A stretch of 64,000 nt of DNA, from assembly GCA_037446395.1 (NCBI GenBank), contig JBBIIP010000016.1:721-64720 (forward strand), in the 5' to 3' direction. The notes beneath the pieces were generated by a model. The model had not been told where the DNA came from. It saw nothing but the letters and a program-made list of their open reading frames with translations, and did not search any database. Below are positions 270-54,119 of this stretch, in pieces. The stretch's first letter is position 1. Each line of letters starts with the position of its first letter. This DNA is from Lentimicrobiaceae bacterium (GTDB taxonomy: Bacteria > Bacteroidota > Bacteroidia > Bacteroidales > JAAYJT01). A program made the translations under genes and the position numbers.

Positions 270-1073
270 TTAGAAATTGTCGGAGACATCGCTATTGGAT
301 GAAGCCCCCTTCATGATTCCTCGCTTTGAATGTTTCACGAAATTGATAATTTCATCTCTCAACGGTGTTGCCGGCATTTGGGTTTCAATAATTTGAAGTG
401 CATTTGAGACATTGTAATTTTTCTGAAACAGCACCCGGTAAATTTCCTGGATGTCATTCACCTGATCTGATGTAAACCCTCTTCTGCGCAAACCAATTGA
501 GTTTATTCCTGAAAATGAAAGGGGCTCCCTTGCAGCCATTGTGTAGGGAGGTACATCCTTTCTCACAAGCGATCCACCTGCAATCATGGTATGAGCCCCA
601 ATGCGAACAAATTGATGTACGGCACTCATTCCACCCAAAATGGCAAAATCATCAATCACCACGTGACCTGCCAACTGTGTACAATTGGCCAGTATTGTGT
701 TTTTCCCGATAATGCAATCATGGGCAATATGCACATAGGCCATAAGCAGGGTGTTATCGCCAACAACGGTTTCCCAGTTGGCCTTGGTGCCACGGTTTAA
801 TGTTACAAATTCCCTGATGGTGACATTGTCGCCCACCCTGACAATGGTCTGTTCTCCGGCAAATTTCAGGTCCTGAGGAATGGCAGAGATTACAGCTCCG
901 GGAAAGATGCGGCAATTTTTTCCAATCCTGGCTCCTTCCATAATTGTAACATTTGACCCAATCCATGTGCCTTCGCCGATTTCAACATTATCGTGAATGT
1001 TTACGAATGGTTCCACAATCACATTGTCGGCAAGTTTTGCTCCCTGATGTATGTTTGCCAAGGTGTGCTTCAT
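270..1073 (-). CDS. lpxA: UDP-N-acetylglucosamine O-acyltransferase
   Basis: Hexapeptide repeats, PQDLKF, YVHIAHDC, AVHQF motifs; follows lpxC/fabZ. Confidence 0.96.
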   Translation of the reverse strand: MKHTLANIHQGAKLADNVIVEPFVNIHDNVEIGEGTWIGSNVTIMEGARIGKNCRIFPGAVISAIPQDLKFAGEQTIVRVGDNVTIREFVTLNRGTKANWETVVGDNTLLMAYVHIAHDCIIGKNTILANCTQLAGHVVIDDFAILGGMSAVHQFVRIGAHTMIAGGSLVRKDVPPYTMAAREPLSFSGINSIGLRRRGFTSDQVNDIQEIYRVLFQKNYNVSNALQIIETQMPATPLRDEIINFVKHSKRGIMKGASSNSDVSDNF

Positions 1074-1090
1074 GATATAGAAATTAAAAA

Positions 1091-2488
1091 TTATTCAGCA
1101 ATTCGTACGATTTGTGCCATCAGCTCGGCTTCCGTAACTATTTTATTTCCAACCCAGGCTGTTCCTTTCATATGGCATACCCCACGGCGCAGGGGCGAAA
1201 TCAGCTCAAGTTTGAAAATGAGTGTATCGCCGGGTACTACTTTTTGCCGAAACCTGACGTTTTCAATCTTCAGGAAATAGGTGATGTAATTTTCTGGATC
1301 CGGAACACTGTTCAGAACAAATACACCTCCTGTTTGGGCAATGGCTTCTACTTGCAAAACTCCCGGCATCAGTGGTTCGTCAGGGAAATGGCCCACAAAA
1401 AATGGCTCATTCATTGTCACGCTCTTTATTCCCACAATTGAGGTATCTGTGATCTCCATGATCTTGTCAACCAACAGAAAGGGAGGGCGGTGGGGAAGTA
1501 TTCGCTTAATGTCGTTAATATTATATAGCGGCGCTTTATTTGGATCATATACAGGAACCGGGGGTGTTTTGGAAGCCTTCCGGATATGCTTTCGGATGAG
1601 CTTGGCAAACTGAACATTTGAAGAATGGCCAGGTTTGTTGGCAATAATATGGGCTTTGAGAGGGACACCTATCAATGCCAGATCGCCGATGACATCAAGC
1701 ATTTTATGGCGGGCAGGTTCATTATGAAACTGAAGTTCGAGCGTATTGAGAATCCCTTCTCGCTTTACCTCAATATGAGGTTTATTAAAAAATTTGGCTA
1801 ATCTATCAAGTTCCTCTTGGGAAACAAGACGGTCAACAAAAACGATAGCATTGTTAAGATCGCCGCCTTTGATGAGGTTGTTGTGTATCAGGTATTCGAG
1901 TTCGTGCAGGAAAACAAATGTACGGCAGGATGCGATCTCAGTTCTGAAATCCTCTATGCGGTGCAGGATCGCGTTTTGGGTTCCAAGCACTTTTGTGCCA
2001 AAATCTATCAACACCGTAGCACGGAAATGGTCTGATGGAATGGCCATCAACTCAATGTTGGAATCGGGATTGGAATAAGTGATATGCGTGTGCAGCTCAT
2101 ACCAGGTTTTTTCTTCTTTTTGTTCGAGTAGTCCTGCCTGCTCAATTGCTTCGACAAAATGTTTTGCGCTACCGTCCATGATGGGCACTTCAGGCCCGTT
2201 GAGTTCAAGAACAACATTATCAACTCCCATTCCGACACAGGCAGCAAGAACGTGTTCGGTAGTATTCACTGAAACACCGTTTTGTTCGAGGCTTGTGCTT
2301 CGGTTTGTAACGGTAACGTTTTCAATGGATGCTTCGACAATTGGATGACCTGCCAGATCGACGCGTTGGAACTTGAACCCGTGGTTTTCAGGTGCCGGTT
2401 TAAAAGTGATGGTGGCGCTTTTGCCGGTATGCAAACCAGCTCCTGTAAGCGAAATAGGATGTTTAATTGTTTTCTGTTTCTCTTTCAT
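1091..2488 (-). CDS. lpxC/fabZ: Bifunctional UDP-3-O-acyl-GlcNAc deacetylase / 3-hydroxyacyl-ACP dehydratase
   Basis: GAGLHTG, TEHVLAA, RHKMLDVIGDL (LpxC) fused to LPHRPPFLLVD, GHFP, PGVLQVEA (FabZ). Confidence 0.96.
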   Translation of the reverse strand: MKEKQKTIKHPISLTGAGLHTGKSATITFKPAPENHGFKFQRVDLAGHPIVEASIENVTVTNRSTSLEQNGVSVNTTEHVLAACVGMGVDNVVLELNGPEVPIMDGSAKHFVEAIEQAGLLEQKEEKTWYELHTHITYSNPDSNIELMAIPSDHFRATVLIDFGTKVLGTQNAILHRIEDFRTEIASCRTFVFLHELEYLIHNNLIKGGDLNNAIVFVDRLVSQEELDRLAKFFNKPHIEVKREGILNTLELQFHNEPARHKMLDVIGDLALIGVPLKAHIIANKPGHSSNVQFAKLIRKHIRKASKTPPVPVYDPNKAPLYNINDIKRILPHRPPFLLVDKIMEITDTSIVGIKSVTMNEPFFVGHFPDEPLMPGVLQVEAIAQTGGVFVLNSVPDPENYITYFLKIENVRFRQKVVPGDTLIFKLELISPLRRGVCHMKGTAWVGNKIVTEAELMAQIVRIAE

Positions 2489-50157: not shown

Positions 50158-51960
50158 ATGGAATCCAGCACTTCAATCCGTAGCTCGTTGAGAAAACTCT
50201 ACAGTCTTTTCAGCCGGCGCGAGAAAATCAAATCTGTCGGGTTATTGTTTTTATTGGTTTTGAATGCCCTAATGGAAATGATCGGGATCGGCGCAATTCC
50301 GGCATTTATTCTCGTGGTTTCTTCTCCGGAGAAGGTGCTGACACATCCTGTTTCGGGTGCCCTTGCTGCCTGGTTGGGCATCGAAACAGCCAGGGAGCTG
50401 TTGGTAATTGGATCTGTTGGGTTAATAGGACTATTTGTTGCAAAAGGGCTGCTGGTTGCCTTCATCGGATATATTCGTACTAGGTTCGTCCAATATAAGT
50501 ACATTGACCTTTCGAGCCGTTTGTTTACCGGTTATATGTTCGCACCTTATGCTTTTCATTTGAACCGAAATTCGGCGGAACTTCTGCGAAACCTGGGCAC
50601 CGAAGCCCATATAGTGGTTTACCTTGTTTTTCTACCGTTGATGGGGATTGCATTAAATATGATAACAATTGTTTTTGTGCTGGCTTTACTAATTACTGTC
50701 CAGCCTTTGTTTTCGATGGTGGCGCTTTTAAGTCTCGGCGGAACTACCTGGGCAATGATGAAAATTGTTCAAAAAAAATCCGAAAAGCATGGAAAAATAG
50801 AAGTATTGCATCGCCAAATCAGCAATCAAACAATCATTGAGGGATTATCGGGGTTTAAAGAAGCACGGGTGCTAGGAAGAGAAATCAATTTTCTAAATCG
50901 TTACAATACAAGTATTTGGCTAAGGTCGAAAGCCCAGTTTTTTCTTGAGATGATGCAGACAATTCAGCGCCCGGTTTATGAAACCATCACGGTAATTGGG
51001 GTTCTTGGCCTTGCCCTTGCGCTTACCGCTCACGAGGAGTCAATGGAACGGATTATTGCCGTGCTGGCTTTATTTGCAGCGGCAACCTACCGTTTGATGC
51101 CGACGTTTAAAGAGCTCATGACACAACTCAATTATTTCAGGTATTATATTCATTCGGTTGATCCGGTTTATCAGGACATCCAGTTGCTTAGCAAATATGC
51201 AGCTTCGGAAAAACAAACTGCCGAACCGGCCTTGCCATTTCAATCGGAAATTGAAATCGAAGCACTTGACTATTATTACCCGGGAACAACTGAGGCGGCG
51301 TTGAAAGAAATCAGTTTAAAGATAAAACGAGGTACTGCCATTGCCCTGGTGGGTGAATCGGGTGCCGGAAAAACAACACTCGTGGATGCTTTGCTGGGGC
51401 TTTTACAGATAGAAAAAGGTAAAATAAGTGTTGATGGTGTTGATATTAGTAACTGTTCCCGTGCATGGCAACGCAATATCGGCTACGTGCCTCAGAATAT
51501 ATTTCTGAGCGACGAATCGCTCAAACGCAATGTGGCCTTTGGATTGAACGACGAAGAAATTGATGATGAAAAATTCAGGCTCGCTGTTGCGGCAGCACAA
51601 CTTAACGAGCTAATAAGCCGGCTGCCCGAAAAAGAAAATACAATGATTGGCGAACGCGGCATAAGGCTCTCAGGAGGGCAGCGCCAGCGCATCGGCATTG
51701 CCCGTGCATTGTATCACAACCCGCAACTGCTCATCATGGACGAAGGCACCTCGGCCCTCGACAACATTACCGAAAAATACGTGATTGAAGCCATTGAGCG
51801 CCTCAAAGGCGACCGCACCATCATCATGATTGCCCACCGCCTCTCCACGGTGAAGAAATGTGATCATATATTCCTGATGAAAGAGGGAAAAATTATTGAC
51901 TCGGGCACCTACGCTGAACTGATGAGCCAAAGCAAGGAATTCAGGTTGATGAATCAATAA
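50158..51960 (+). CDS. ABC transporter permease/ATPase, PglK/MsbA-like glycan flippase
   Basis: TM domain plus GESGAGKTT, LSGGQRQRIGIARA, MDEGTSALD; inside glycan locus. Confidence 0.88.
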   Translation: MESSTSIRSSLRKLYSLFSRREKIKSVGLLFLLVLNALMEMIGIGAIPAFILVVSSPEKVLTHPVSGALAAWLGIETARELLVIGSVGLIGLFVAKGLLVAFIGYIRTRFVQYKYIDLSSRLFTGYMFAPYAFHLNRNSAELLRNLGTEAHIVVYLVFLPLMGIALNMITIVFVLALLITVQPLFSMVALLSLGGTTWAMMKIVQKKSEKHGKIEVLHRQISNQTIIEGLSGFKEARVLGREINFLNRYNTSIWLRSKAQFFLEMMQTIQRPVYETITVIGVLGLALALTAHEESMERIIAVLALFAAATYRLMPTFKELMTQLNYFRYYIHSVDPVYQDIQLLSKYAASEKQTAEPALPFQSEIEIEALDYYYPGTTEAALKEISLKIKRGTAIALVGESGAGKTTLVDALLGLLQIEKGKISVDGVDISNCSRAWQRNIGYVPQNIFLSDESLKRNVAFGLNDEEIDDEKFRLAVAAAQLNELISRLPEKENTMIGERGIRLSGGQRQRIGIARALYHNPQLLIMDEGTSALDNITEKYVIEAIERLKGDRTIIMIAHRLSTVKKCDHIFLMKEGKIIDSGTYAELMSQSKEFRLMNQ

Positions 51961-52097
51961 CTTTTCTGCCCCATAGAAAGAATTAACGCATAGCACAGCC
52001 ATTACACTCGGCAAAAAAACACAACATGCCAAACGAATACAATCTATGGGATGCGCTAAGTAAACCGCACGGCGGTCTGACCAAGTACGCAGATTAC

Positions 52098-52191
52098 TGT
52101 CCACAGATTACACAGATTATACGGATTATTGTCCACAGATTACACAGATTACACGGGTTATTGTCCACAGATTACACAGATTACACAGATT
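52098..52191 (+). repeat. Three tandem 32-bp repeats with internal 9-nt period
   Basis: Units at 52098, 52130, 52162, consensus TGTCC-ACAGATT-AC-ACAGATT-AC-ACRGATT-AT. Confidence 0.95.
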
Positions 52192-52213
52192 GTAAAGACT
52201 AAATACTGATGGT

Positions 52214-52591
52214 ATGGAGGAGAGCTTATTATATAAGGAAGAAACGTATAAGATCATTGGGGCGTTGATGGAGGTTCACAAAACGTTAGGCTGTGGATTT
52301 CTTGAAGCCGTTTACCAGGAGGCAATTGAGCTTGAATTTAGACTGCAAAATATCCCCTTCGAAACCGAAAAGCGGATCAATATCAGCTACAAGGGAATTC
52401 AACTCGAAAAGTCATATATCGCTGATTTCGTTTGCTTCGACTCGATCATCATCGAAATAAAAGCACTCTCAGCCCTGACCACCGACCACGAAGCTCAAAT
52501 TATGAATTACCTGAAAGCAACCGGCCTGAAGGTAGGAATTCTTGTTAATTTCGGTGAGAAAAGCCTGAAATACAAACGCTTTATATATTAA
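52214..52591 (+). CDS. GxxExxY protein (PD-(D/E)xK nuclease superfamily)
   Basis: LGCGFLEAVYQEA motif, YIADFV...IIIEIKA, EAQIMNYLKAT...GILVNFG. Confidence 0.93.
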   Translation: MEESLLYKEETYKIIGALMEVHKTLGCGFLEAVYQEAIELEFRLQNIPFETEKRINISYKGIQLEKSYIADFVCFDSIIIEIKALSALTTDHEAQIMNYLKATGLKVGILVNFGEKSLKYKRFIY

Positions 52592-52595
52592 TCCT

Positions 52596-52625
52596 TGTCC
52601 ACAAAATACACAGATTACACAGATT
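52596..52625 (+). repeat. Fourth direct copy of the repeat, 4 nt after GxxExxY stop
   Basis: TGTCC-ACAAAAT-AC-ACAGATT-AC-ACAGATT. Confidence 0.9.
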
Positions 52626-52745
52626 GCCAAGATACATTATCAATTTTATACAGAAATATACATTGCCTGAAAACCATTGGCTGATGACCATAAGACCTGG
52701 CAATCTCAGAGCGCTGAACCAAAAGTACCAGAACATAGCATTTAA

Positions 52746-52775
52746 AATCTGTGTAATCCGTGAAATCTGTGGACA
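52746..52775 (-). repeat. Inverted copy of the repeat
   Basis: Reverse complement reads TGTCC-ACAGATT-TC-ACGGATT-AC-ACAGATT. Confidence 0.92.
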
Positions 52776-52985
52776 CTGCATTTGACCTATCTACCCATGT
52801 AAACGTATTAGAAAATTTAAACTGATAATCCGACAGTTTATTCGACCGGTATATAATTATGCGTTTAATTCATAAGCATATTACTTTCAGATGTAGCAGC
52901 ATCAAAAAATATTGCAAACAGAACATTTGCTGTATAAATAGACACAAATGCAGGCTCCTTTCTGTTTAATTTAGTAAAAAGAAAT

Positions 52986-54119
52986 ATGGATAAAATAAAG
53001 ATATTGTTTATTATAGGAACCAGGCCTGAGGCGATTAAGATTGCTCCAATAATCATAGAGTTGTACAAATATCCTCAGTATTTTCAACCTTTGATTTGTG
53101 TTACCGGTCAGCATCGGCAAATGCTCGATCAAGTTTTGGATTTTTTTCAGATAACACCTGATTTCGATCTCAACATAATGAAGCACATTCAGACATTATC
53201 TGATGTTACTGCAGCGTGCGTTAAGGGTATCGAAAAAGTTCTAAGAGATTGCGCTCCTAACATTGTTTGCGTTCAAGGAGATACGACCTCTGCATTTGCT
53301 GGAGCACTATCTGCTTTTTATTATAAGATCATCGTAGCGCATGTTGAGGCAGGTTTAAGAAGCGGAAACAAATATTCCCCATACCCTGAAGAATTGAACA
53401 GGGTTCTTATAAGCAGACTTGCGGATCTGCATTTCGCCCCAACAGAAAAAGCCAGGGCTAATCTGGTTCACGAAGGGATAGATGAAAACATTCATGTTGT
53501 CGGCAATACAGTCATTGATGCATTGTATCTTGGTTTAAAATTAATTGAACAATCACACGTTGAAAAATATTGTTCTTTCTTTAGGATGATCGATTTCAAT
53601 AAACGCATCATATTAATCACCGGTCATCGGCGAGAAAGCTTTGGCGAAGGTTGTATGAATATTTGTCATGCCATTAAACAAATTTCGAGCGATTATCCCG
53701 ATGTTGAAATCGTTTATCCCGTTCATCTAAACCCAAATGTTCGTGAGCCAGTAACAAGAATTCTCAATAATGTTTCCAATATTCATCTTATCGAACCCTT
53801 AGAATATGGATATTTCATTTGGCTCTTAAATAAATGTTTTATGGTGTTGACAGATTCTGGCGGCATACAAGAAGAGGCCCCTTCATTGGGAAAACCCGTT
53901 TTGGTCATGCGTGATGTAACCGAACGCATGGAAGGGATAGAATCCGGCACTGCAAAACTTGTTGGGACTTCAATCGATGCGATATACAATGAAACAAAAT
54001 TGATACTTACCAGCGAACACGTATATAAGAAAATGTCAAAAGCTCACAATCCTTATGGCGATGGATTAGCTTCAAGCAGAATCGTACAGGTCATATCTAA
54101 TTTCCGCATTGCTAAATAA
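52986..54119 (+). CDS. wecB: UDP-N-acetylglucosamine 2-epimerase (non-hydrolysing)
   Basis: GTRPEAIK, TGQHRQM, VQGDT, HVEAGLRS, TDSGGIQEEAP, NPYGDG. Confidence 0.95.
   Translation: MDKIKILFIIGTRPEAIKIAPIIIELYKYPQYFQPLICVTGQHRQMLDQVLDFFQITPDFDLNIMKHIQTLSDVTAACVKGIEKVLRDCAPNIVCVQGDTTSAFAGALSAFYYKIIVAHVEAGLRSGNKYSPYPEELNRVLISRLADLHFAPTEKARANLVHEGIDENIHVVGNTVIDALYLGLKLIEQSHVEKYCSFFRMIDFNKRIILITGHRRESFGEGCMNICHAIKQISSDYPDVEIVYPVHLNPNVREPVTRILNNVSNIHLIEPLEYGYFIWLLNKCFMVLTDSGGIQEEAPSLGKPVLVMRDVTERMEGIESGTAKLVGTSIDAIYNETKLILTSEHVYKKMSKAHNPYGDGLASSRIVQVISNFRIAK

Follow-up and report, generated by a model that had tools for sequence, protein, structure and literature searches.

Why does a locus for glycan synthesis hold a small nuclease gene set between copies of a phased repeat, and does the repeat belong to the gene? 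The question is raised by a 64,000-nucleotide stretch of the genome of a Lentimicrobiaceae bacterium (GenBank assembly GCA_037446395.1, contig JBBIIP010000016.1, positions 721 to 64,720; hereafter the window), in which a GxxExxY gene, predicted to encode a PD-(D/E)XK nuclease, is bracketed by arrays of heptamers. An earlier inspection of the letters alone (the sequence-only reading) had taken the repeats for cis-acting sites of the enclosed nuclease, and gene and repeats together for a minimal mobile or selfish element. Comparison with GxxExxY loci of other genomes supports the view that gene and repeats would form one selfish or evolutionary unit: most of the family members sampled carry such arrays, and the heptamer word follows the protein subfamily. 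[quoted passage not shown] No description of arrays beside GxxExxY genes was found in the searched literature, the scope of which excluded supplements.

Heptamer arrays accompany GxxExxY genes across the family

The sample comprised 110 GxxExxY loci, 30 from 40 relatives of the window genome and 80 from a one-genome-per-species collection; the species-wide set is mostly Bacteroidota but also includes Anaerolineales, Acidobacteriota, Ignavibacteria, Chlorobiaceae and others. Two loci that copy others (L111 of L001, L119 of L077) and genes with short flanks or internal stops were excluded. An array was called where at least three like heptamers recur at 8–12-nt spacing within 300 nt of the gene, a detector that is blind to two-unit arrays, to more than one mismatch and to periods outside 8–12 nt. 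By this definition, 79 of the 106 GxxExxY genes with usable flanks have an array (54 upstream, 64 downstream, 39 on both sides), compared with 309 of 5556 control segments of the same genomes on any side (5.6%) and 3 of 5556 on both. Array density is 2.9 per kb near GxxExxY genes and 0.10 per kb genome-wide. A stricter definition, an identical heptamer present at least three times upstream and at least three times inverted downstream, within 160 nt, is matched by 48 of 104 genes versus 3 of 300 random segments. The enrichment beside homologues that the sequence-only reading had anticipated is thus borne out by both counts.

The canonical order is forward array, gene, inverted array. Specifically, matches to the heptamer class number 608 in the forward-upstream/inverted-downstream sense and 180 in the opposite sense. 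Arrays consist of three (114) or four (53) units, with heptamers spaced by 9 (147), 10 (112), 11 (66), 8 (25) or 12 (37) nt. The upstream array ends a median of 43 nt before the aligned start of the gene, and the first downstream array lies a median of 18.5 nt past the stop. On reading of the flanks, arrays with a heptamer every 9–11 nt were seen to bracket almost all homologues. The word itself varies by locus (CACAGAG, CACAAAG, CGCAGAT, CACGAAT, CAGAATT, AATCAAG and more). Both neighbours are co-directional at 70 of 88 GxxExxY loci, compared with 134 of 300 random open reading frames (ORFs), which suggests that the cassette relies on, or tolerates, read-through transcription of an operon.

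Outside Bacteroidota the layout recurs, in some cases in modified form. In Sphingomonas, arrays flank a GxxExxY gene between fabD and fabG of the fatty-acid synthesis operon; the arrays of a Gemmatirosa copy form a hairpin downstream of the gene; in Fusobacteria, direct repeats lie to either side of a copy; and in Treponema a single inverted CACGGATT-type pair, a reduced form, lies beside a protein 58.5% identical to that of the window. The Sphingomonas gene, on a plasmid of Sphingomonas parapaucimobilis (NZ_CP155749.1, 482837–483265; L192), has CGCGAAG arrays, and its annotated ORF extends through the inverted array.

The heptamer word follows the protein subfamily

Proteins with a GPGLLE motif are accompanied by CRCNRAG heptamers in 79 cases, by CRCRRAT in 2 and by neither in 18, and proteins with G.GF(L/Q)E, the kind found in the window, by CRCRRAT in 12, by CRCNRAG in 0 and by neither in 9, although the rows behind these counts are not phylogenetically independent (L116 duplicates L013, and L120–L130 are orthologues of L077). 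The pairing can also be followed within single genomes. Three genomes (G043, G037 and G029) hold 9, 5 and 6 GxxExxY copies, respectively, which are 29–64% identical, with maxima of 64%, 59% and 64%. As judged by eye, most of these paralogues carry their own matching word on both flanks, with few exceptions (e.g. L197 and L201). The co-variation of repeat and protein that the sequence-only reading had proposed as a check is therefore present between subfamilies and among divergent paralogues of one genome. Many words thus coexist in one genome, each tied to its own protein lineage, which speaks against one host factor and for a recognition that may be encoded by the cassette itself. Comparison of forward with inverted arrays, possible in 12 cassettes, gives 86% identity for the heptamers and 34% for the spacers.

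The window cassette lies at a breakpoint in a glycan locus

The cassette and its neighbours have the following parts.

50158..51960, + strand: ATP-binding cassette (ABC) transporter with membrane and ATPase domains, the co-directional upstream neighbour (Pfam ABC_tran E 7.4e-33, ABC_membrane E 7.9e-9)
52024..52080, + strand: the first ~18 codons, left as an orphan and cut off at the repeat boundary, of a wzm-like gene for an ABC-2 type permease; aligned to the gene start in the relative G008
52086..52191, + strand: upstream forward array, a partial unit and three 32-nt units at 52098, 52130 and 52162
52214..52591, + strand: GxxExxY gene, 125 aa, PD-(D/E)XK nuclease fold by hidden Markov models and structure model; E31, D71, E81 and K83 conserved
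52596..52625, + strand: fourth forward unit, 4 nt past the stop codon; left arm of the downstream hairpin
52626..52745: 120-nt spacer of unexplained content that separates the forward from the reverse unit and forms the downstream hairpin's loop
52746..52775, − strand: inverted unit closing the cassette (..AATCTGTGGACA)
52986..54119, + strand: UDP-N-acetylglucosamine 2-epimerase (wecB), the co-directional downstream neighbour (Pfam Epimerase_2 E 2.5e-117)

The anatomy first described for this locus holds throughout, namely the cassette coordinates, the 125-aa gene, the repeat units and the 4-nt gap between the stop at 52591 and the unit at 52596. Each 32-nt unit consists of TGTCC and three ACAGATT-type heptamers at 9-nt spacing. 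Tandem Repeats Finder returns positions 52092–52191 as an array with a 32-nt period (3.1 copies, 92% matches, score 172) and an inner 9-nt period, CACAGATTA. The 21-mer TGTCCACAGATTACACAGATT is exact at 52098, 52130 and 52162, has two mismatches at 52596 (+) and two at 52755–52775 (−), and is matched 7 times in the window versus 0 times in 100 dinucleotide-preserving shuffles. The arms 52098–52127 and 52746–52775 are 87% complementary. The order of the window cassette, three forward units, gene, forward unit and reverse unit, marks it as an atypical, array-rich copy.

The genome assembly (2.65 Mb, 59 contigs, 99.9% complete) contains one GxxExxY gene. The repeat core CACAGATTACACAGATT, with up to two mismatches, has 11 matches in the 2,653,594-base genome, 10 of them at the cassette and one unrelated, so the confinement of the array to this locus, seen earlier in the window, extends to the genome.

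The surroundings form a glycan locus with a series of sugar-nucleotide and glycosyltransferase genes. In the relative G008, the orthologue of the ABC transporter gene is followed by an intact ABC-2 permease gene, whose match to ABC2_membrane (E 6.3e-5, 23 bits) is below the 26.9-bit cut-off. Homology between the window and this permease gene ends just 5′ of the first repeat, which places the cassette at the breakpoint that removed the remainder of the gene. A 58-aa ORF (52026–52202) is the permease gene remnant reading on through the array. We considered whether the repeats are coding and rejected this, as their spacings mix 9, 10 and 11 nt and are not multiples of 3. As for the earlier suggestion that the cassette is a recombination hotspot of the glycan locus, the truncated permease gene ending at the repeat boundary gives it a faint and local hint.

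In G008 (L112, G008:C163, ~390–1500, minus strand), an AbiEii-family nucleotidyltransferase gene (Pfam E 1.7e-8) occupies the junction after the ABC transporter orthologue. A second copy of the final ~60 nt of the ABC gene bounds the insert, and the intact permease gene follows it; with this insert, the junction appears as a repeated insertion point. The same congener also has an orphan forward array 94% identical to the window unit (L188, G008:C2:8200-9200), which adjoins a four-helix-bundle gene with its own, different (GTAGTCG-type) arrays.

Cassettes are present, absent, replaced or decayed at a conserved junction

The junction between map (methionine aminopeptidase) and a methyltransferase gene was probed in 201 Flavobacterium genomes, and 20 junctions were inspected. 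Five of them are empty, stop and start codons overlapping as TAATG, and two more have spacers of 2–20 nt. A type-A cassette is present in the reference L077 and, as contiguous matches, in L120–L130; including its flanks, it is 67–88% identical across species. Six junctions hold instead a type-B cassette, which belongs to a different subfamily, that of the window, and has CACGAAT or CACAGAT arrays beginning at, or up to ~55 nt past, the map stop codon. Decayed forms comprise two internal gene deletions, one junction with arrays only and one with two leftover units. Furthermore, one type-B junction also holds a type-A remnant, and the type-A reference L077 holds a type-B-like remnant. The occurrence of two subfamilies at one site, together with the decay series, is hard to explain without insertion or site-directed replacement.

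The sequence-only reading had looked to an empty allele for evidence of movement. The Flavobacterium site provides empty, filled and decayed states. The window's own site, a rearranged junction, does not: no empty allele was found among 20 relatives, the sole orthologous junction (that of G008) having a different insert. No recent clean insertion was found among the Flavobacterium junctions and gene-less hairpins inspected.

At one further junction of map and the methyltransferase gene (L148, G148:C1:1896625-1898869), a type-A forward array is followed by a ~2-kb insert with no GxxExxY gene. The insert carries a 431-aa P-loop ATPase ORF and a 119-aa ORF, and its far end has no inverted array.

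Arrays and hairpins also occur apart from the gene

In the same 201 Flavobacterium genomes, a type-B double-unit pattern has 0–309 matches per genome and at least one in 149 genomes, compared with 3 matches in total for a reversed-pattern control. Type-B-like genes are present in 100 of the 201 genomes, 1–3 in each (E <= 1e-30). Many of the gene-less copies inspected are forward-loop-reverse hairpins, some of them perfect palindromes followed by a T-run and some embedded in larger composite repeats; L185 is one such perfectly palindromic copy. Within the window's order, 26 of the 29 genomes with a GxxExxY gene have arrays, as do 3 of the 12 that lack one. The tie between repeat and gene that had been proposed for the window therefore holds in the window genome, where the repeat is found at the gene only, and is looser elsewhere: Flavobacterium arrays are dispersed, and 2 of the 12 GxxExxY-free relatives are array-rich.

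One gene-less hairpin, located after a methyltransferase gene, can be compared among four genomes. Its second unit reads CACGAAT/ATTCGTG, CACTAAT/ATTAGTG or CACAAAT/ATTTGTG, and complementarity kept through such different double changes indicates that pairing, or arm-to-arm conversion, is maintained. The hairpin is orthologous in close relatives and thus offers no empty site.

The search also covered contigs of three DNA runs from one subsurface metagenome study, and the window itself may derive from one of these runs. Contigs from two of them (runs X1 and X2; window positions 52100–52775) have forward and inverted units only 25 nt apart and different outer flanks. By their sequence, these contigs represent a gene-less hairpin of the window's repeat type, derived from a different place or organism of that community.

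Several gene-less arrays have a more complex architecture. In L183 (G079:C1:2400200-2400800; matches to 2401734), ~28 pattern matches in 1.5 kb form a tandem array of ~54-nt units, each with two inverted-type CACAGAT heptamers and a conserved tail, and the whole resembles a satellite derived from one hairpin arm. On the same contig, L182, L186 and L187 are copies of a ~290-nt composite dispersed repeat, tandem in L182, which combines a type-B hairpin (GCCACAGATT...AATCTGTGGC) with a perfect type-A hairpin of 8-nt period (CGCAGAGA CGCGAAGA CGCAAAGA ... inverted). The arrays of one of the array-rich GxxExxY-free relatives (G030) consist of CGCAAAGG with an 8-nt period and are clustered on short contigs; this genome has one four-helix-bundle gene, and the other such relative (G039) has three.

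The GxxExxY protein retains the residues of a nuclease

The window protein matches PF13366 PDDEXK_3 (E 4.9e-42, 143.4 bits, cut-off 22) and TIGR04256 GxxExxY (E 7.9e-45, 152 bits, cut-off 35), and its Pfam and NCBIfam matches are exclusively PD-(D/E)XK families. Residues G28, E31, Y34, D71, E81 and K83 are invariant among 20 sequences. The intact catalytic residues suggest that the protein may be a working nuclease. The predicted structure has an alpha-beta core (predicted local distance difference test score, pLDDT, 94); the nearest solved folds in Foldseek are Cas4 SSO0001 (E 1.4e-4) and lambda exonuclease and relatives, with template modelling (TM) scores of ~0.55, and I-Bth0305I ranks 28 among the matches. 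No solved structure was found by sequence at E <= 1.

The family is large (17,531 clusters at 50% identity, E <= 1e-3, in a library of 1.84 billion representatives) and appears chromosomal in the main. The window protein has no match among 50,697 phage records at E <= 1e-5 and 8 matches among plasmid records, all typed non-mobilizable and mostly very large. Searches against defence and phage families gave 0 matches in PADLOC and 0 in PHROGs. A 2012 survey of PD-(D/E)XK proteins enters the function of PDDEXK_3 as 'Unknown' (PMC3424549).

Four-helix-bundle genes have an analogous bracket

Genes of the TIGR02436 four-helix-bundle family, known from 23S rRNA intervening sequences (IVS), are present in 34 of 41 genomes; the window genome has three such genes. 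Around 29 such genes of relatives, arrays were found at 26, on both sides at 17 and with inverted copies on the opposite side at 12; the corresponding counts in 300 control segments are 29, 0 and 0. These arrays are contiguous, with a ~7-nt period, purine-rich upstream and the complement downstream. Their words (L151–L180; in the window's own genome L168, G000:C9:114-437) include AGTGACC/GGTCACT, AACTGAA/TCAGTTA and GAAAATT/AATTTTC.

Unexplained heptamer direct repeats are reportedly also found as the STRR (short tandemly repeated repetitive) sequences of cyanobacteria. Some of the four-helix-bundle words resemble the TAACTGA direct repeats of Beggiatoaceae, Cyanobacteria and Bacteroidetes, for which a post-transcriptional regulator was proposed (MacGregor, PMC4679880). 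The TAACTGA repeats differ from GxxExxY arrays in being contiguous and mostly one-sided; the terms 'nuclease', 'four helix' and 'S23' do not occur in the searchable text of that paper. We regard these repeats as a related phenomenon that lacks an explanation.

A proposed hairpin-ended selfish cassette and its alternatives

The following course of events would account for these observations. A small, promoterless-looking cassette occupies, co-directionally, junctions within operons. Its ends are sets of 3–4 heptamers phased at about one helical turn (9–11 nt) and, with the array forward before the start and inverted after the stop, these ends could pair as a hairpin or cruciform. The PD-(D/E)XK nuclease would read the iterated words, probably with several subunits placed on two folded or synapsed ends, and this recognition would underlie insertion, replacement or retention of the cassette. 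Gene-less forward-loop-reverse hairpins would be either landing sites or MITE-like derivatives that are not autonomous, and a portion of them may have been co-opted as terminator-like stems. In the minimal mobile or selfish element of the sequence-only reading, the unit made of gene and repeats is the part that finds support; that the arrays are bound and cut by the GxxExxY protein, and the element thereby moved, is what we infer.

A number of observations weigh against this interpretation. The paralogues are old, at most 64% identical within a genome, and give no sign of recent copy-and-paste of the gene. To our knowledge, a bare PD-(D/E)XK hydrolase is incapable of strand transfer by itself. 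No target-site duplication has been established; TTAA-like flanks are seen at 2 of the 6 type-B junctions (L143 and L150, not L144–L147) and are possibly part of the inverted ends. The first detector gives no array at 27 of the 106 genes, and the window, L011 and L013 deviate from the canonical order, the latter two as hairpin-gene-hairpin. Arrays far outnumber genes: the array-rich genomes G046 and G053 have no type-B-like gene at E <= 1e-30, the array-rich G189, G235 and G043 are likewise missing from the genomes with a type-B-like match at that threshold, and the GxxExxY-free relatives G030 and G039 carry 42 and 35 triple-heptamer arrays. In the compensating hairpin, unit 2 differs from units 1 and 3, a pattern more easily reconciled with a constraint on pairing than with protein sites of uniform sequence. 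Finally, the four-helix-bundle genes, which do not encode nucleases, have an analogous bracket, so a bracket need not depend on a nuclease.

The arrays might instead act in RNA: once the operon is transcribed, they would pair into a long-range stem like that of 23S rRNA intervening sequences. The cassette mRNA would thereby be insulated, processed (e.g. through RNase III) or made more stable, or the flanking genes would regain their coupling, the nuclease having an unrelated job and the arrays tracking it through linkage alone. The arrays do abut start and stop codons, the cassettes are co-directional within operons in the proportions given above, and some sit directly between a stop and the next start (TAATG in empty alleles). 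Pairing from flank to flank is stronger within loci (mean −39.6 kcal/mol) than between loci (−29.8 kcal/mol; p 1e-7), a gene-less hairpin with a T-run after it has compensatory arm changes, and the rRNA-IVS-family genes have the same kind of bracket. We nevertheless consider this explanation unlikely: a plain stem needs neither one heptamer per arm nor spacers that drift while heptamers are kept, it leaves different subfamilies at one site and dispersed gene-less copies unexplained, and no Rfam family matches window positions 51900–53000 at E <= 1. Of 108 loci, 67 have the more stable duplex in antisense and 41 in sense, a weak test given the skewed composition of the arrays; the lack of a stability advantage for the sense strand indicates that the mRNA strand does not favour G-U pairs. 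The hairpins may also be the primary, independently spreading repeats (REP-, MITE- or terminator-like), into which GxxExxY genes would home secondarily, for example by cutting of the hairpin centre and copying in of the gene with the arms as homology. This is attractive where gene-less hairpins far outnumber genes or occur in genomes with no close cognate gene, where the gene of a canonical cassette has a forward arm directly before it and a reverse arm directly after it, where the gene stands between complete hairpins (L011, L013 and the window), where metagenome contigs join the window's arms by 25 nt in another context, and where gene-less copies are perfectly palindromic (L185). We regard it as quite unlikely, since it leaves the agent that spreads the hairpins unspecified and the window genome has no free hairpin of its type; it also overlaps our own proposal in that the nuclease remains cognate to the arrays.

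Alternatively, GxxExxY proteins could be sequence-specific DNA-binding proteins that repress or protect their own locus through the arrays, with no transposition and with spread confined to ordinary horizontal transfer and to homologous recombination in the flanks. Cooperative binding typically involves phased iterated sites, heptamer and protein co-vary, and the copies are old and vertically inherited, as in the type-A cassettes of Flavobacterium with their flanks. The inverted downstream array, the dispersed gene-less hairpins and two unrelated subfamilies at one site are not accounted for, however, and the intact catalytic residues point to a working nuclease, so we hold an operator or addiction role to be very unlikely. 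Chance or local slippage, an ordinary tandem repeat beside an unrelated gene, could draw on the confinement of the repeat to the cassette locus in the window genome and on the variable number of units between loci, but it has a negligible probability and is refuted by the shuffles (0/100), by the family-wide enrichment (79/106 homologues versus 5.6% of control segments) and by the strict inverted-array counts (48/104 versus 3/300). Overall, a hairpin-ended cassette with its own cognate sites fits the evidence better than a pure RNA stem, a host-factor site or chance.

Relation to known enzyme-plus-repeat systems

The closest analogy is provided by the REPtrons, in which REP (repetitive extragenic palindromic) sequences flank a RAYT (REP-associated tyrosine transposase) gene, although the GxxExxY cassette is not a member, as both its enzyme and its repeat anatomy differ. 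In both systems, an enzyme gene is flanked in inverted orientation by hairpin-forming repeats on which it putatively acts, the repeats are more numerous than the gene and, in part of the genomes, dispersed, and enzyme lineages go with distinct repeats. The GxxExxY enzyme, however, is a 125-aa PD-(D/E)XK protein rather than an HUH/Y1 (IS200/IS605-like) transposase, and its repeats are 3–4 phased heptamers ending ..CCAC/GTGG.. rather than single 20–40-nt palindromes, which reportedly carry a GTAG or CGTC head. The repeat is moreover undispersed in the window genome (10 of 11 matches at the locus), in contrast to the up to 309 matches in Flavobacterium.

Transposons with terminal inverted repeats (TIRs), such as Tn7 and Mu, and MITEs share with these cassettes inverted ends made of iterated sites, high-copy gene-less derivatives joined end to end, and filled and empty sites. 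Tn7 employs a PD-(D/E)XK nuclease, TnsA. Unlike Tn7 and Mu, the cassette has a 125-aa PD-(D/E)XK ORF alone and lacks a DDE enzyme or any other for strand transfer. No target duplication is established, and the gene copies within a genome are old and divergent rather than near-identical. The BrickBuilt MITE of Porphyromonas (PMC4596501) has IS5-type ends and 23-nt repeats and was rejected as unrelated.

Free-standing homing endonuclease genes are also small nuclease genes that are present or absent between conserved genes, with variants sharing a site as in Flavobacterium, and PD-(D/E)XK homing enzymes exist. We know of no homing genes with iterated inverted arrays at both ends, and the GxxExxY cassettes are chromosomal (0/50,697 phage records). 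The 23S rRNA intervening sequences likewise consist of a small ORF bracketed by inverted repeats. The window ORF, however, belongs to PF13366 and not to PF05635/TIGR02436, the fold differs, the cassette lies outside an rRNA gene, and the GxxExxY arrays are spaced at 9–11 nt rather than contiguous with a ~7-nt period as at the IVS-family genes. The Avd protein of diversity-generating retroelements is said to belong to the PF05635/TIGR02436 family. Integron gene cassettes (attC) and pdif modules too are promoterless-looking, co-oriented small genes bounded by imperfect hairpin sites, and the hairpin-gene-hairpin order of L011, L013 and the window is the form expected from recombination between such sites. 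The cassettes differ from them in having heptamer arrays on both sides; no integrase or Xer-type site was identified, no integrase search having been run.

Implications and annotation

These results suggest an extension of the enzyme-plus-cognate-repeat layout to the GxxExxY family. A cis-element that co-varies with its protein makes each protein assayable against its own and foreign arrays, and the family offers a natural panel of protein/DNA-word pairs from which a recognition code could be worked out. If the cassettes move, they would join REP/RAYT and the few other systems of enzyme and repeat as a nuclease-based case and would explain dispersed hairpin repeats in Bacteroidota. In addition, the window cassette marks the junction of a permease gene loss, which is relevant to the reshuffling of surface-polysaccharide loci.

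We tentatively raise a broader possibility, for which the odds are clearly below even. GxxExxY proteins may be the sequence-specific enzymes of very widespread, unrecognised minimal mobile cassettes with lineage-specific words, and the four-helix-bundle genes a sister class with contiguous 7-nt arrays. Both might then explain the heptamer repeats of Bacteroidota, Cyanobacteria and Beggiatoaceae as parts of a mobilome settling at operon junctions (fabD|fabG, map|methyltransferase, hsdM|hsdS and those in glycan loci) and giving rise to hairpins that resemble terminators.

The arrays also bear on sequence data as deposited. GxxExxY arrays break assemblies, and many GxxExxY ORF calls in databases are extended through arrays, with N-termini of the QITQI, TDYTDY or PITPIT kind. 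Translated CAGAT-type or similar arrays stand at the termini of at least 6 of the 28 extended calls whose proteins are close to that of the window. Artefactual QITQISQIS, TDYTDYT and PITPITPIS termini occur in such calls (P0016, P0017, P0058, P0071, P0075 and P0124), and artefactual C-termini derived from arrays read IGVIGVIGG and SAKSAKSA.

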